In this document: in pieces, positions 4,221 through 47,292 of the stretch
Layout: the number at the start of each line of letters is the position of its first letter
Numbering within the stretch: position 1 is the stretch's first letter
The notes under the pieces: model-generated
Told to the model about the DNA's origin: nothing
The model's database searches: none
The model's input: the letters and a program-made list of their open reading frames with translations, nothing else
Sequence record: KM606994
DNA from: Escherichia phage RB3
Length of the DNA: 64,000 nucleotides
Strand: one strand, 5' to 3'
Position numbers and translations under genes: made by a program

Positions 4221-5030
4221 ATGCTTAAAGAACAACTGATTGCCGAAGCGCAGAAAATTGATGCTTCCGTTGCTCTTGATAGTATTTTCGAATCAGTTAA
4301 TATTTCTCCGGAAGCAAAAGAAACTTTCGGCACTGTATTCGAAGCTACCGTCAAGCAGCACGCCGTTAAATTAGCTGAATCTCATATCGCTAAAATTGCT
4401 GAAAAAGCAGAAGAAGAAGTAGAAAAAAATAAAGAAGAAGCCGAAGAAAAAGCTGAGAAGAAAATCGCTGAGCAAGCTTCTAAATTCATTGACCATCTTG
4501 CGAAAGAATGGCTCGCTGAAAATAAATTAGCAGTTGATAAAGGCATCAAAGCCGAACTGTTTGAATCCATGCTTGGTGGATTAAAAGAGCTCTTTGTTGA
4601 ACACAACGTTGTTGTTCCAGAAGAATCAGTTGATGTTGTAGCTGAAATGGAAGAAGAGCTGCAAGAACATAAAGAAGAATCAGCTCGTCTGTTCGAAGAA
4701 CTCAATATGCGCGACGCATATATCAATTATGTGCAGCGTGAAGTGGCATTGAGCGAAAGTACTAAAGATCTGACTGAGTCTCAAAAAGAAAAAGTCTCTG
4801 CTCTGGTCGAAGGTATGGATTATTCAGATGCATTCTCAAGTAAATTGAGTGCAATCGTAGAAATGGTGAAGAAATCTAATAAAGATGAAAGCACTATTAC
4901 TGAGAGTATAAATACTCCTGATACTGAAGCAGCCGGACTGAATTTCGTCACTGAAGCTGTAGAAGATAAAGCTGCACAAGGTGCAGAAGATATTGTAAGT
5001 GTATATGCGAAAGTCGCATCTCGTTTCTAA
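4221..5030 (+). CDS. 22: Prohead scaffold protein gp22
   Basis: 269 aa, highly charged coiled-coil-like E/K-rich sequence; late promoter at 4186-4193. Confidence 0.9.
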   Translation: MLKEQLIAEAQKIDASVALDSIFESVNISPEAKETFGTVFEATVKQHAVKLAESHIAKIAEKAEEEVEKNKEEAEEKAEKKIAEQASKFIDHLAKEWLAENKLAVDKGIKAELFESMLGGLKELFVEHNVVVPEESVDVVAEMEEELQEHKEESARLFEELNMRDAYINYVQREVALSESTKDLTESQKEKVSALVEGMDYSDAFSSKLSAIVEMVKKSNKDESTITESINTPDTEAAGLNFVTEAVEDKAAQGAEDIVSVYAKVASRF

Positions 5031-5048
5031 TTTTAAAGGTTAACACAA

Positions 5049-6614
5049 ATGACTATCAAAACTAAAGCTGAACTTTTGAACAAATGGAAGCCATTACTGG
5101 AAGGTGAAGGTTTACCGGAAATTGCTAATAGCAAACAAGCGATTATCGCTAAAATCTTTGAAAACCAGGAAAAAGATTTCCAGACAGCTCCAGAATACAA
5201 AGACGAAAAAATTGCTCAGGCATTTGGTTCTTTCTTAACAGAAGCTGAAATCGGTGGTGACCACGGTTACAATGCTACTAACATCGCTGCAGGTCAGACT
5301 TCTGGCGCAGTAACTCAGATTGGCCCAGCTGTTATGGGTATGGTACGTCGTGCTATTCCTAACCTGATTGCTTTCGATATTTGTGGTGTTCAGCCGATGA
5401 ACAGACCGACTGGCCAGGTATTCGCACTGCGTGCAGTATATGGTAAAGATCCGGTGGCTGCTGGTGCTAAAGAAGCTTTCCACCCAATGTATGGTCCAGA
5501 TGCAATGTTCTCTGGTCAGGGTGCTGCTAAGAAATTCCCAGCTCTGGCTGCTAGCACACAAACCGTTGTAGGTGATATCTATACTCACTTCTTCCAGGAA
5601 ACTGGTACTGTGTATCTGCAAGCTTCCGCTGTAGTAACAATCGATGCTGGTGCGACTGATGCTGCTAAATTAGATGCTGAAATTAAGAAACAAATGGAAG
5701 CTGGTGCACTGGTAGAAATCGCTGAAGGTATGGCTACTTCTATCGCTGAACTCCAGGAAGGTTTCAACGGTTCTACCGATAACCCATGGAATGAAATGGG
5801 CTTCCGTATCGATAAGCAAGTTATTGAAGCTAAATCTCGCCAGCTGAAAGCTGCTTACTCTATCGAATTAGCACAGGACCTCCGCGCTGTTCACGGTATG
5901 GATGCTGATGCTGAACTGTCCAGTATTCTGGCTACAGAAATCATGCTGGAAATCAACCGTGAAGTTGTTGATTGGATTAACTACTCAGCTCAGGTTGGTA
6001 AATCTGGTATGACCCTGACTCCGGGTTCTAAAGCTGGTGTATTTGACTTCCAGGATCCAATCGATATTCGTGGTGCTCGCTGGGCAGGTGAATCCTTTAA
6101 AGCTCTGTTGTTCCAGATTGACAAAGAAGCAGTTGAAATTGCTCGTCAGACTGGTCGTGGTGAAGGTAACTTCATTATCGCTTCCCGTAACGTAGTTAAC
6201 GTTCTGGCTTCAGTTGATACCGGAATTTCTTATGCTGCACAGGGTCTGGCTACCGGCTTTAACACTGATACTACCAAGTCAGTATTTGCTGGTGTTCTGG
6301 GTGGTAAATACCGTGTATATATCGACCAGTATGCTAAACAGGATTATTTCACTGTAGGTTATAAAGGTCCGAACGAAATGGATGCTGGTATTTACTACGC
6401 TCCATATGTAGCTCTGACTCCGCTGCGTGGTTCCGATCCGAAGAACTTCCAACCGGTAATGGGATTCAAAACTCGTTACGGTATCGGTATCAACCCATTT
6501 GCAGAATCCGCTGCTCAGGCTCCGGCTTCTCGCATCCAGAGCGGTATGCCTTCTATTCTGAATAGCCTTGGTAAAAACGCTTACTTCCGCCGTGTATATG
6601 TTAAAGGTATCTAA
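5049..6614 (+). CDS. 23: Major capsid protein gp23
   Basis: 521 aa, MTIKTKAELLNKWKPLLEGEG...; followed by GGGACC-UUCG-GGUCCC terminator. Confidence 0.95.
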   Translation: MTIKTKAELLNKWKPLLEGEGLPEIANSKQAIIAKIFENQEKDFQTAPEYKDEKIAQAFGSFLTEAEIGGDHGYNATNIAAGQTSGAVTQIGPAVMGMVRRAIPNLIAFDICGVQPMNRPTGQVFALRAVYGKDPVAAGAKEAFHPMYGPDAMFSGQGAAKKFPALAASTQTVVGDIYTHFFQETGTVYLQASAVVTIDAGATDAAKLDAEIKKQMEAGALVEIAEGMATSIAELQEGFNGSTDNPWNEMGFRIDKQVIEAKSRQLKAAYSIELAQDLRAVHGMDADAELSSILATEIMLEINREVVDWINYSAQVGKSGMTLTPGSKAGVFDFQDPIDIRGARWAGESFKALLFQIDKEAVEIARQTGRGEGNFIIASRNVVNVLASVDTGISYAAQGLATGFNTDTTKSVFAGVLGGKYRVYIDQYAKQDYFTVGYKGPNEMDAGIYYAPYVALTPLRGSDPKNFQPVMGFKTRYGIGINPFAESAAQAPASRIQSGMPSILNSLGKNAYFRRVYVKGI

Positions 6615-39593: not shown

Positions 39594-40096
39594 TTAAAAG
39601 TATTTTTTAAAACTCATCATAACTTTATCATCAACATCATTATCAATCTGTGCAACAAGGTAAGATGACAGTTCTACTTCTTGTGGCGCGGATTGAACAT
39701 TATCAGAATTAAGATATTCACGAATCCAAGGATATGGATGTTTAACCGGAGCATCGGTAATTGGGCATGGAAGACCACACTGTTTCATACGAGATACAGT
39801 TAAGTAATCAATAAAGCTCCACATGCTATTTGTATTTAATCCAGGAACATCGCCATCTTTAAATAAATGAACTGCCCAATCTTTTTCTTGGCGGTTAACT
39901 TCCATGAAAATATCAACTGCTTCTTGTTCACACTCTTGAGCAATTTTAACCCATTCATCACCATCAGTACCGGATTGAAGTTGACGAATAATATATTGAG
40001 TGCCTTTAAGGTGAAGCTGTTCATCGCGTGCAATGAACTTCATAATCTTGGCATTACCTTCCATGATTTCCATGTTCTTATGGAAGTTAAAGGTAC
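39594..40096 (-). CDS. nrdB: Ribonucleotide reductase small subunit NrdB, exon 2
   Basis: Reads ...FNFHKNMEIMEGNAK..., aligning with E. coli NrdB FAFAERELMEGNAK; 3' splice site inferred after an intron-terminal G. Confidence 0.8.
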
Positions 40097-41187
40097 CGTT
40101 ATGTTCGATTGAGCTCGCTAATTCTCAACCCGTTCTCTTATGAACTGCTACATATTACTATGCAGACCAGACTATATCACAATCCCAGAGGGATTCTCCC
40201 CATTTCGAGTCGCTTGACCCTACGTCCGAAGACTAGTCGTTGAACCTTGCTTTGCAATTGTCGCCGTGCCATCGTTTATATGTTGATGGTGATAAATCTT
40301 TCTTATCACAATATGGACAATTCAATTGAATTCTATTTGGATTTAATTTACATCTGTCATTATGTTTTAGATAAAATCCAGGACCTTTACCAATGTGACC
40401 GCAGAAATCACATGTGATTTCTTTTTGTGCAGGATGGGTCCCGTTCTTAACCATTTCTAATGTTTTTGCTGATGTTCTTTTCTTATGGTCTTCTGACAAG
40501 AAATGATGTGAACCGTCATTTACCCGTTTTGATTGAGTTTCTGACTGCATTTTACCACCGCAAAATACATGAGTACCTTCTTTTATAGCTGCAATATTGC
40601 GTTCTTTAACTTTTGCAATATGCTCAGCTTGTTGAAAATTATGTATACCTAATGCAACTCTATTTAAATTAGATTTACGCTGTATTTCACCGTCTAAAAG
40701 ATGAAATGTACCATTTTCTATCTTAGATTTAATAGAGGCAATATTTTTAGCTCGTACTTCAGGGATATTAAAAATCTGGATTTCTCTAGATTTTGCGGCT
40801 TTAGAAGCTAATTCAGAAATTTCTTCAGGAGAATATTTCATTCTAAGCTTTATAGCATGACAAGCCTGGTAATCTTTTTGAGCTAAATGTATATCATAAT
40901 GTTCCTGTATAGAAAGGCACATCAAATTATCTAAATCATTATTTTCACGGTTACCGTCTTTATGATGGATTTCGTCTGTTCTTCCATCAGAATCTTTAGG
41001 TATAGGTCCGTTAGCATCTATCCAAATTTTTCTATAGTTCAATTGTGCATCCTCTTAAAAGTATAATCATATTTATATTATACTAATTAAAGGTGCAAGC
41101 AAAACCTTGGCTGCTAGTTTTCCTATAAAGGACTTTCCAGCAATTAAAGGAGTTTTCGATAAACGTTACCGTTTAAAGGCGCATTTT
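40097..41187 (-). mobile_element. Group I self-splicing intron in nrdB, about 1.09 kb, carrying I-TevIII
   Basis: Interrupts nrdB between FYVSFA and CTFNFHK; 3' core shares GTAGGGTCAAGYGACTCGAAA and GATATAGTCTG with the td intron; boundaries inferred, +/- a few nt. Confidence 0.8.
40233..41042 (-). CDS. Intron-encoded HNH homing endonuclease I-TevIII, full length
   Basis: 269 aa; HNH motif (EIHHKDGNRENNDLDNLMCLSIQEHYDIH); inside nrdB intron. Confidence 0.85.
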   Translation of the reverse strand: MNYRKIWIDANGPIPKDSDGRTDEIHHKDGNRENNDLDNLMCLSIQEHYDIHLAQKDYQACHAIKLRMKYSPEEISELASKAAKSREIQIFNIPEVRAKNIASIKSKIENGTFHLLDGEIQRKSNLNRVALGIHNFQQAEHIAKVKERNIAAIKEGTHVFCGGKMQSETQSKRVNDGSHHFLSEDHKKRTSAKTLEMVKNGTHPAQKEITCDFCGHIGKGPGFYLKHNDRCKLNPNRIQLNCPYCDKKDLSPSTYKRWHGDNCKARFND

Positions 41188-41863
41188 ACGCAAAAGATAC
41201 ATAAAAACGAATAGCTTCTAAGGCATTAATAACGTGCAAACAGAGGTAAAGAGATTTCATTAAAGCACGTTTAGCTTCGGCTTCTTGCTTAATAGCTCGG
41301 TTTAAACGAAAGTCGGCATCAGGAGATTCTTTAGCTAGTTCTACAAATTCTTTAGCATTTTCCCATTCACGGGTTTTAATCAGAACATCATCATAATAGC
41401 GACCGATAGATTCAGCGCGTTTCATAATAGCTTCATCTAATACAATCTCATCAAACACCTTTGACGGATCAGTATAAAGATTTCGCATGATATGTGTATA
41501 TGAACGACTGTGAATAGTTTCACTAAAAGTCCATGTAGCAACCCATGTATCAAGACTTGGGTCTGAAATTAATGACATAAGTACAGCAGATGGCGCACGA
41601 CCCTGAATGCTATCCAAAAGTGATTGATACTTCAGATTATTAGTAAAAATATTTTGCTGATACTGAGGAAGCTTATTAAACTGTGCAGCATCCATCATTA
41701 AGTTTACTTCTTCCGGGCGCCAGAAGAATGACAATTGCTTTTCGGTCAAATCTTCAAAAACTTTATGGCGTTGAATATCATAACGCGCAATACCAAGACC
41801 TGAACCAAAAAACATGGGTTCTTTTAAAACATCAACTGGATTTGTATTAAAAACTGTAGACAT
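41188..41863 (-). CDS. nrdB: Ribonucleotide reductase small subunit NrdB, exon 1
   Basis: Starts MSTVFNTNPVDVLKEPMFFGSG; ATG overlaps mobE stop (TAATG); exon ends ...RFYVSFA + split Cys codon. Confidence 0.8.
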
Positions 41864-42594
41864 TAATTTTTCCTCTTTAAAATTCTGCCGCGTTTCCAAC
41901 CTGGCGGTATAATATCATCTTTACCTATAAGCGTGCATTCACTTCCATTATTAATCCATTTCTTACCGCGGATTCCTTTATAATCTCTTGGTTGTATTTT
42001 ATCAAACTTTGCATCAAGTTGATATGACCATCTAAATCCATAGGCATATTGAAATTTACCCTCAGCACAATATTTGATATTTGACCCGTTTCCATTAACT
42101 GACCTGGACGCTGCCGCAATAGAGTGAAAGGTTTCTATGAAATCCCCATCTAATGAGAATTTATGTATTTCGATAGATGGGCATGCATACCTATTCACGT
42201 TTGATACATGTTGTTTAGTTTCGTTTTTATGATGCTTGCCTAACATTCCTCTAGGATGAGGATTATTTTTCCAATATTTCTTAAAGAAATCAGAATTAGC
42301 TTTAGCAAATAATTTTCTGTGCAAGCTATACAATCTGTTATTAATTCTATTACCAGCTTTATCTGTTGCCATTAACGTTAACGCAGAGGCAAGCCCAAAA
42401 TGGCCTTCATTTATCTTACATAGTAATAGATGCGCTATAAAATGTTCTCTAGCTGTTAATTCAACTAAATTTTCTTTATCATCAGAACCTCCCATGCATT
42501 TAGGGACTATATGATGTGTCTCTTTATATTCAGATAAAGGTTCCCGAGCCTGAGCTCGGGAAATTAGGTCATTATAGATTTTTTGATAATTCAT
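41863..42594 (-). CDS. mobE: HNH homing endonuclease MobE
   Basis: 243 aa; HNH motif (HHIVPKCMGGSDDKENLVELTAREHFIAH); between nrdA and nrdB. Confidence 0.75.
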   Translation of the reverse strand: MNYQKIYNDLISRAQAREPLSEYKETHHIVPKCMGGSDDKENLVELTAREHFIAHLLLCKINEGHFGLASALTLMATDKAGNRINNRLYSLHRKLFAKANSDFFKKYWKNNPHPRGMLGKHHKNETKQHVSNVNRYACPSIEIHKFSLDGDFIETFHSIAAASRSVNGNGSNIKYCAEGKFQYAYGFRWSYQLDAKFDKIQPRDYKGIRGKKWINNGSECTLIGKDDIIPPGWKRGRILKRKN

Positions 42595-45415: not shown

Positions 45416-45727
45416 TTATACCGCCATTTTTCCTTTCAAGACACCGTGGGACTGATAATCTTTGAGAACGAAATCTTTAGGCCTGAGTTTAAGAATGTAT
45501 TCCAATTGTTCTTTAGTAGAAAGATAGCGGAATTTATAAGGCAATCCGCCTATTACCAGTTCACAAAGCTCTTTAGGTTCACGACGCAAAATTTCTTTAC
45601 ATTGTTCTACGTGATTCATATAGATATGAGTATTACCGCCAGAAAATATCAAATCTCCAGGAATAAGATTACACATCTTAGCTACAATATGAACTAACGT
45701 AGCATATGATGCAATATTAAATGGTAG
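45416..45727 (-). CDS. td: Thymidylate synthase, exon 2
   Basis: Exon begins CTACCATTT (LPFNIASYATLVH...) right after intron-terminal ...CATAATG. Confidence 0.92.
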   Translation of the reverse strand, partial: LPFNIASYATLVHIVAKMCNLIPGDLIFSGGNTHIYMNHVEQCKEILRREPKELCELVIGGLPYKFRYLSTKEQLEYILKLRPKDFVLKDYQSHGVLKGKMAV

Positions 45728-46743
45728 CATTATGTTCAGATAAGGTCGTTAATCTTACCCCGGAATTATATCCAGCTGCATGTCACCATGCAGATCAGAC
45801 TATATCTCCAACTTGTTAAAGCAAGTTGTCTATCGTTTCGAGTCACTTGACCCTACTCCCCAAAGGGATAGTCGTTAGGCATTTATGTAGAACCAATTCC
45901 ATTTATCAGATTTTACACGATAAGTAACTAATCCAGACGAAATTTTAAAATGTCTAGCTGCATCTGCTGCACAATCAAAAATAACCCCATCACATGAAAT
46001 CTTTTTAATATTACTAGGCTTTTTACCTTTCATCTTTTCTGATATTTTAGATTTAGTTATGTCTGAATGCTTATGATTAAAGAATGAATTATTTTCACCT
46101 GAACGATTTCTGCATTTACTACAAGTATAAGCAGAAGTTTGTATGCGAACACCGCACTTACAAAACTTATGGGTTTCTGGATTCCAACGCCCGTTTTTAC
46201 TTCCGGGTTTACTGTAAAGAGCTTTCCGACCATCAGGTCCAAGTTTAAGCATCTTAGCTTTAACAGTTTCAGAACGTTTCTTAATAATTTCTTCTTTTAA
46301 TGGATGCGTAGAACATGTATCACCAAACGTTGCATCAGCAATATTGTATCCATTAATTTTAGAATTAAGCTCTTTAATCCAAAAATTTTCTCGTTCAATA
46401 ATCAAATCTTTCTCATATGGAATTTCTTCCAAAATAGAACATTCAAACACATTACCATGTTTGTTAAAAGACCTCTGAAGTTTTATAGAAGAATGGCATC
46501 CTTTTTCTAAATCTTTAAAATGCCTCTTCCATCTCTTTTCAAAATCTTTAGCACTTCCTACATATACTTTATTGTTTAAAGTATTTTTAATCTGATAAAT
46601 TCCGCTTTTCATAAATACCTCTTTAAATATAGAAGTATTTATTAAAGGGCAGTCCTACAATTTAGCACGGGATTGTCTACTAGAGAGGTTCCCCGTTTAG
46701 ATAGATTACAAGTATAAGTCACCTTATACTCAGGCCTCAATTA
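45728..46743 (-). mobile_element. Group I self-splicing intron in td (1016 nt) carrying I-TevI
   Basis: 5' end TAATTGAGGCCTGAGTATAAGGTG after exon ...TTGGGT; 3' end ...CATAATG; length equals the T4 td intron. Confidence 0.92.
45875..46612 (-). CDS. Intron-encoded GIY-YIG homing endonuclease I-TevI
   Basis: 245 aa; MKSGIYQIKNTLNNKVYVGSAK... Confidence 0.93.
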   Translation of the reverse strand: MKSGIYQIKNTLNNKVYVGSAKDFEKRWKRHFKDLEKGCHSSIKLQRSFNKHGNVFECSILEEIPYEKDLIIERENFWIKELNSKINGYNIADATFGDTCSTHPLKEEIIKKRSETVKAKMLKLGPDGRKALYSKPGSKNGRWNPETHKFCKCGVRIQTSAYTCSKCRNRSGENNSFFNHKHSDITKSKISEKMKGKKPSNIKKISCDGVIFDCAADAARHFKISSGLVTYRVKSDKWNWFYINA

Positions 46744-47292
46744 ACCCAAGAAAACATCTACTGATCGTTGATACCACTGCAAATCCAAATAGCCATTACG
46801 CACATTAAACTGATAGAACATATGACAAGGCGGTAATGCCATATATTTAAGTTCAGCTGGATTCCACGCAGAAACAATTTGTCGCCTATCATTCGGCAGT
46901 TTTTTAATACGATCAATAACTTCTACAATTTGGTCTACACCGCCAAAATCACGCCATTGTTTTCCATAAATTGGACCAAGTTCACCGCTATGGTATCCTA
47001 AATCTTTTGCTTGATTTTCGTAATTTTCATCCCAGACTGTTTTGCCTTGGATTAACGAATCATGCTGAATTAATCGTAAATCATTTACGTTAGTACTTCC
47101 TGATAAGAACCAAAGTAGCTCAGCAATGCAAGCTTTCCAAGCGAGCTTTTTAGTTGTTACTGCAGGAAAACCTTTACTTAAATCCCAGCGTAATTTAGTA
47201 CCGAACAAAGCAATTGTTCCTGTGCCCGTTCGGTCATCGGTTTCATAGCCATTTTCAAAAATGTCTTTAATTAAATCTTGGTATTGTTTCAT
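46744..47292 (-). CDS. td: Thymidylate synthase, exon 1
   Basis: MKQYQDLIKDIFENGYETDDRTGTGT...; exons sum to 286 codons. Confidence 0.92.

Follow-up and report, generated by a model that had tools for sequence, protein, structure and literature searches.

The window analysed here, 64,000 nucleotides of Escherichia phage RB3 (sequence record KM606994), contains two genes on the minus strand that are each interrupted by a group I intron with an endonuclease gene inside it. These are nrdB, whose intron encodes the HNH endonuclease I-TevIII, and td, whose intron encodes I-TevI, an enzyme of the GIY-YIG family. A further endonuclease gene, mobE, lies directly upstream of nrdB. Window positions 30000-54000 (24 kb) were 100% identical to the genomes of phages RB5, RB6, RB7, RB9 and RB10, all of which are recorded under the species Tequatrovirus RB3, and the same complete identity was found for positions 39594-41899. 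The window matches RB5 positions from about 96 to 160 kb, and coordinates were converted by subtracting 95992 from the RB5 position; the nrdB intron thus corresponds to RB5 136089..137179, again with 100% identity. The annotation of the five genomes joins nrdB from two pieces, places I-TevIII between them as a homing endonuclease and has mobE upstream. The long nrdB intron with I-TevIII is a known feature that has been both published and annotated, and it is not new: the long intron of RB3 nrdB was published in 1991 (Eddy & Gold, Genes Dev 5:1032; GenBank X59078) and the biochemistry of I-TevIII together with the mobility of the intron in 2007 (Robbins et al., PMC1865063). With the identical sequence already present in five annotated GenBank genomes, its discovery value is small. 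The coordinates of the features at both genes and of mobE are collected in Table 1.

Table 1. Positions of the nrdB, td and mobE features in the window.
Feature	Position	Strand	Description
nrdB exon 1	41863..41188	minus	676 nt; from T4 nrdB alignment, spliced translation and E. coli R2 alignment
Group I intron of nrdB in its long (RB3) form	41187..40097	minus	1091 nt; begins AAAAUGCGCC, ends AACAUAACG
nrdB exon 2	40096..39594	minus	503 nt with stop codon; begins GU, which completes the Cys codon
5′ ribozyme segment	41095..41191	minus	P1, P2, P3 5′ strand, P4, P5, 5′ strand of P6/P6a
3′ ribozyme segment	40097..40255	minus	P6a 3′ strand, P7, P7.1, P7.2, P3 3′ strand, P8, P7 3′ strand, P9, P9.1, P9.2, terminal G
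Late-promoter consensus match TATAAATA	41077..41070	minus	28 nt upstream of I-TevIII start; script search
Hairpin burying the I-TevIII Shine-Dalgarno sequence	41097..41046	minus	predicted fold
I-TevIII ORF	41042..40233	minus	269 aa; UUG (TTG) start, UAG stop
Segment absent from T4	40978..40488	minus	491 nt, inside I-TevIII ORF; bordered by GAAGA
mobE	41863-42594	minus	243 aa; directly upstream of nrdB
td exon 1	47292..46744	minus	549 nt, 183 whole codons
td group I intron	46743..45728	minus	1016 nt, between Gly183 and Leu184
I-TevI ORF	46612..45875	minus	245 aa; from RB5 annotation, T4 alignment and Pfam
td exon 2	45727..45416	minus	312 nt with stop codon

The nrdB intron, put at about 1.09 kb in the original prediction, could be delimited to the base from the T4 alignment and the translation of the joined exons. 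Its ends fall exactly on the positions of the original prediction (40097-41187), which shows that intron boundaries can be placed to single-base precision from raw sequence. It interrupts a Cys codon behind its first base (T|GT; UGU once spliced), the 3′ base of exon 1 being U and the 3′ base of the intron being G. The spliced exons form a single ORF of 392 aa, and its product can be aligned with E. coli R2 continuously across the splice junction (FYVSFAC|TFNF vs FYVSFACSFAF, E 1e-126). For td, the spliced product of 286 aa gave a full-length alignment with 1TIS, the structure of T4 thymidylate synthase. The I-TevI ORF showed Pfam matches to GIY-YIG (66.8 bits), I-TevI_ZnF (73.4 bits) and I-TevI_DNA-bd (110.5 bits). 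The td intron occupies the same site as in T4 and its I-TevI ORF is identical to that of T4 at the DNA level; over its whole length the intron departs from that of T4 RefSeq at only two points, a T that is missing upstream of the ORF (at about 46652) and one substitution near P9.

Two earlier statements on the introns had to be refined. It had been claimed that the td intron has exactly the T4 length of 1016 nt. This is indeed the length found here, whereas the T4 RefSeq intron measures 1017 nt by alignment. The classical published length of the T4 td intron is 1016 nt. Both introns had also been said to interrupt conserved codons, which is correct for nrdB, where the Cys codon is split, but not for td, where the intron falls between two codons within a conserved motif.

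The ribozyme core of the nrdB intron

The helices listed in Table 1 are our own assignments derived from the sequence, with the Rfam alignment of the identical PD112 sequence as an added basis. In the predicted P1, exon GCGU pairs with intron bases 6-9 (GCGC) and a U-G pair falls on the splice site. The end signature of group I introns is present, with the exon-final U opposite the guide G and a G as the last base of the intron. The last codons of I-TevIII and its UAG stop overlap the predicted P7 5′ strand and the first base of P7.1. To assess the fold, 70 proposed pairs in 13 helices were counted over five variants (window, T4, PD112, SG1 and S16); this structural alignment is one of nrdB introns, and nrdD, which bears another intron in T4, is located there at about 43.5-46.4 kb. 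Standard pairs were present in 99.7% of the cells, a figure that is inflated because the structure was derived from the same sequence, compared with 35-43% when the partners were slid against each other. In the five variants the conserved helices from P3 through P9 are able to form, the P3/P7 pseudoknot among them, and they are kept in the relatives. Compensatory changes were seen at two pairs of P2 and one pair of P9, and covariation support is thin since most helices are invariant among the five compared sequences.

The original prediction that the nrdB and td introns share blocks in their 3′ cores was confirmed: either intron contains GTAGGGTCAAGYGACTCGAAA and GATATAGTCTG exactly once, and neither block is found elsewhere in the window; the mean numbers of matches in shuffled sequence were 0.00 and 0.01, respectively. 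The two blocks map to P7.2 and to the J8/7-P7 strand.

Rfam searches of the whole window at gathering thresholds returned no matches. In a permissive scan of positions 39900-41400, Intron_gpI was matched in the 3′ half with 33.9 bits (E 1.5e-6), all other matches being at chance level. The gathering score of this family (RF00028; threshold 50) was reached only by relatives with an absent or shortened ORF, namely the PD112 intron with 68.6 bits and the short SG1 intron (420 nt) with 57.9 bits, while the window itself stayed below it. The PD112 intron is 304 nt long and has no ORF, and its flanks are those of the window except for a gap of 2 nt within the promoter region. The sub-threshold score of the window intron is likely due to the 810-nt ORF that sits inside the core, in P6, and because the ORF-less relatives exceed the threshold we do not read the low score as a sign that the sequence is not an intron.

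It might be argued that nrdB is truly split here, so that two polypeptides would be made with a free-standing HNH gene between their genes and RNA splicing would play no part. Such a reading could point to the Rfam result at gathering level and to several records which list nrdB_1 and nrdB_2 as CDSs with a hypothetical protein or homing endonuclease in between. However, exon 1 stays open until the first codon of the intron and exon 2 has no start of its own at the junction, joining the exons at U|...G| rebuilds one codon and yields an R2 that is aligned across the junction, and the intervening sequence possesses a group I core that is well recognized in its ORF-less form. The T4 homologue is moreover a classic self-splicing intron (PMC1865063, PMC2988022; also described as self-splicing in PMC2790892). 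A truly split nrdB, to which we assign next to no probability, was rejected on the basis of the restored codon, the unbroken R2 alignment and the group I core.

In many GenBank phage genomes the locus is given as two separate nrdB genes and a "hypothetical protein", without an intron or a join, and this constitutes a systematic annotation gap. The sequence described here is of practical use as a clean reference for the re-annotation of phage records of this kind. As a separate observation, the 3′-terminal 89 nt of this intron, from about P9 to P9.2, have an 86.5% match in the unrelated marine Pseudoalteromonas phage pYD6-A (NC_020849.1, 16993-17079), in a gene that is annotated as "ATPase". 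This match may mark a related group I intron that has escaped annotation.

I-TevIII and the signals for its expression

The I-TevIII ORF is the only long ORF in the nrdB intron and contains no frameshift. Its product is identical in all 269 of 269 residues to I-TevIII of RB3 (CAA41802.1, from record X59078), in agreement with the intact HNH endonuclease that had been predicted. Pfam HNH_3 was matched at residues 4-48 with 43.9 bits (cut-off 24.8; E 1.9e-11), and the translation includes all of the catalytic residues H26, H27, N39 and H48, each of which abolishes I-TevIII cleavage when replaced by alanine (PMC1865063). Both C-terminal zinc fingers of the form CX2C...HX3C are intact (CDFC at 211 and CPYC at 242; C211, C214, C242 and C245), and zinc-finger residues of I-TevIII are needed for the binding of zinc and DNA (PMC1865063). 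The earlier expectation of a potentially active homing endonuclease agrees with the published experiments on the identical RB3 protein, which cleaves its homing site and drives homing of the intron (PMC1865063). In the stretch that separates the HNH domain from the zinc fingers, at residues 74-114 (about 40701-40823), Pfam also reported FlgM, an anti-sigma-28 factor, with 26.2 bits against a cut-off of 25; this match is probably due to chance.

I-TevIII has in common with I-HmuI and other HNH endonucleases of phage introns that an HNH module is combined with an extended DNA-binding region (PMC1865063), and both I-HmuI and I-TevIII cleave some way off the site where the intron is inserted (PMC1865063). 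The two are set apart by their descriptions, I-HmuI being a monomer that nicks one strand, whereas I-TevIII is a dimer that makes a double-strand break and binds DNA through two zinc fingers (PMC1865063).

Middle and late promoters have been described for the intron ORFs (PMC2988022). In addition to the match to the late-promoter consensus, the nrdB intron contains a Shine-Dalgarno sequence, AAGAGGA, at 41056..41050 (intron bases 132-138), with the I-TevIII start at base 146. The hairpin predicted to bury it has a folding energy of -14.9 kcal/mol (z = -5.28); among 200 shuffled sequences there was none of equal stability. For I-TevI, I-TevII as well as I-TevIII in T4, early read-through RNA hides the ribosome-binding site, and late transcripts that start inside the hairpin expose it (PMC2988022). 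Late promoter and hairpin of the nrdB intron may be inferred to work here as they do in T4. A scan for sigma-70 promoters gave 14 sites compared with 13.6 in shuffled sequence and is uninformative for the middle and late promoters of T4.

Long and shortened forms of the intron and their mobility

Alignment with the introns of RB3 and T4, which the original prediction had proposed as a check, placed the intron with RB3 and identified that of T4 as a shortened form. Compared with RB3 (X59078), the insertion site, the ribozyme and the I-TevIII protein are the same and the intron DNA is 99.9% identical. The window has CCC, with an extra C at 40192, where X59078 has CC near its position 1040, so that the lengths are 1091 and 1090 nt. 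These bases belong to the predicted P8 hairpin AAUCCC-UCU-GGGAUU, and CCC is found in the window, RB5-10, T4, PD112, SG1 and S16. Since the extra C completes the P8 hairpin and all other aligned phages have CCC, the base missing from X59078 was probably misread in 1991. The RB3-like state suggested earlier is thus apparent in the I-TevIII protein, which is that of RB3, and in the complete identity of the intron to RB5, RB6, RB7, RB9 and RB10.

In T4 (NC_000866) the nrdB intron is 598 nt long, at the same insertion site and with nearly identical ribozyme segments. It keeps the start region of the ORF and the C-terminal zinc-finger region and lacks the 491 nt in between; it is also without two single bases, and its changes in P9 preserve pairing. 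The loss removes the HNH domain and, as it is not a multiple of three, shifts the frame. The annotated T4 ORF of 97 codons starts in another frame and runs into the zinc-finger region, and the T4 record itself labels its copy as a defective endonuclease whose proximal half has suffered a deletion. The earlier statement that T4 has a deletion derivative of roughly 0.6 kb with a truncated ORF was therefore accurate. This defunct T4 intron does not home by itself and is mobilised in trans by MobE (PMC2790892).

The 491-nt difference is read as a deletion and not as an insertion because GAAGA borders the segment on both sides in the long form. If instead the short form of T4 had come first, the 491 nt would have been inserted later to give the long form, and it is true that two sequences alone give no formal proof of direction. 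Yet the 491 nt complete one ORF of which both halves survive in T4 in different frames, they encode the catalytic HNH domain, and the direct repeat of the long form, with one copy left in T4, is the trace that a deletion leaves. Overlapping but distinct deletions occur in two other phages, and the intron of the distant phage S16 is of the long form as well. We consider the derivation of the long from the short form exceedingly improbable. The ancestral state ascribed earlier to the long intron is in line with T4, where the two ends of the ORF survive on either side of a gap that shifts the frame and lies at a short direct repeat.

The I-TevIII ORF is shortened in three different ways, by 491 nt in T4 (at GAAGA), 664 nt in SG1 (at AGATG) and 785 nt in PD112 (at ACAATTG), in each case at direct repeats of 5-7 nt that are seen in the full-length form. 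On the extracted loci the respective positions are 4441-5065 for T4, 1201-1618 for SG1 and 1501-1804 for PD112. PD112 and SG1 are also without part of the late promoter TATAAATA. Among 927 phage records with matches to the nrdB region, the intron was present in 127, and in 83 of these 127 one match covered at least 80% of the 1091 nt, which makes the long form the usual one. The T4-type deletion was found in a minority, consisting of T4 strains and a few others. Phage S16 carries the long intron with 89% DNA identity and an annotated CDS of 810 nt at the position of I-TevIII, and the retention of this CDS at such a level of identity points to selection on the protein. The one-base difference from the 1991 sequence and the three different repeat-flanked deletions of the ORF are the mildly new points of this analysis.

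The nrdB exons are a mosaic with respect to T4. A patch of exon 1 at about 41264-41349 (gene positions of about 515-600) diverges strongly from T4, with 12 nt of indels, and the 74 nt of exon adjoining the intron, like the greater part of exon 2, hardly differ from T4. Judged from the sequence, this pattern fits exon co-conversion during intron homing.

The neighbouring mobE gene differs from its T4 counterpart. Only the first ~55 residues, the HNH part, are common to the encoded protein and to MobE of T4 (141 aa); the remainder differs and contains a NUMOD1 DNA-binding motif, and T4 has a separate ORF, nrdB.1, at this place. The gene has the look of a free-standing endonuclease that was replaced or had its domains swapped. 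Replacements of Hef and MobE were reportedly treated by Sandegren et al. in 2005, and the variant in the window may be related to these. Near the 5′ end of mobE there is a terminator-like GC-rich hairpin, TTCCCGAGC-TCAG-GCTCGGGAA (42541-42562, minus strand). Wilson & Edgell described an internal terminator that limits mobE transcripts in mobE-carrying phages, and the hairpin fits this terminator. With mobE being present here too, homing by I-TevIII and mobilisation in trans by MobE may both operate at this locus.

This raises the question of whether I-TevIII, although intact, might be idle, with the intron being kept mainly by vertical descent or by gene conversion that is triggered by MobE. 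The trans-mobilisation of the defunct T4 intron (PMC2790892), the position of mobE directly upstream of nrdB also in this phage, and the differing ORF deletions in T4, SG1 and PD112 would be compatible with an idle enzyme, as would the low catalytic efficiency reported by Robbins et al. in 2007 and the failure of Eddy & Gold in 1991 to show mobility of the RB3 intron (PMC1865063). Robbins et al. did, however, demonstrate I-TevIII-dependent homing for the RB3 intron (PMC1865063), and the intron is covered to at least 80% of its length in the 83 of 127 intron-bearing records mentioned above, while S16 still has its annotated 810-nt CDS at 89% intron DNA identity. We therefore regard an idle I-TevIII as improbable, if somewhat less so than the alternatives treated above.

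Taken together, we are highly confident that the nrdB intron of the window is a group I intron in its wild-type state and at full length, as it belongs to the RB3 group among the T4-like phages. From our analysis this reading draws on the intron boundaries, the intact ORF with its residues, the identity to RB3, the pairable and conserved core and the deletion in T4; from the literature it takes splicing, cleavage chemistry and mobility, as described for the identical protein and a 99.9% identical intron. According to the mechanism that we propose, the split core (P1 to P6 on the 5′ side and P6′ to P9.2 on the 3′ side) would fold around an ORF that is looped out from an extension of P6, and self-splicing of the nrdB pre-mRNA, initiated by guanosine, would restore the Cys codon and the complete R2. 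The looped-out ORF would give rise to I-TevIII, an endonuclease of the HNH type that bears two zinc fingers at its C-terminus. Its ribosome-binding site would be buried in the hairpin in early transcripts and would be free in late transcripts from TATAAATA, which would begin inside the hairpin. I-TevIII, made late, would then bind intron-less nrdB as a dimer, as is known for the identical protein (PMC1865063), and repair off the intron-bearing allele would copy the intron in (PMC1865063). The td intron and I-TevI would follow the same scheme with a GIY-YIG enzyme.

Considering all forms of the nrdB intron, the long form may be the usual wild state, from which I-TevIII would have been lost at least three separate times with the ribozyme left intact, a natural decay series to which we give an even chance. 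The series of ORF deletions illustrates the cycle of gain and decay of homing endonuclease genes. If it is indeed a decay series, it would allow the loss of homing endonuclease genes to be studied, including the question of whether a neighbour of the MobE type keeps leftover introns circulating.
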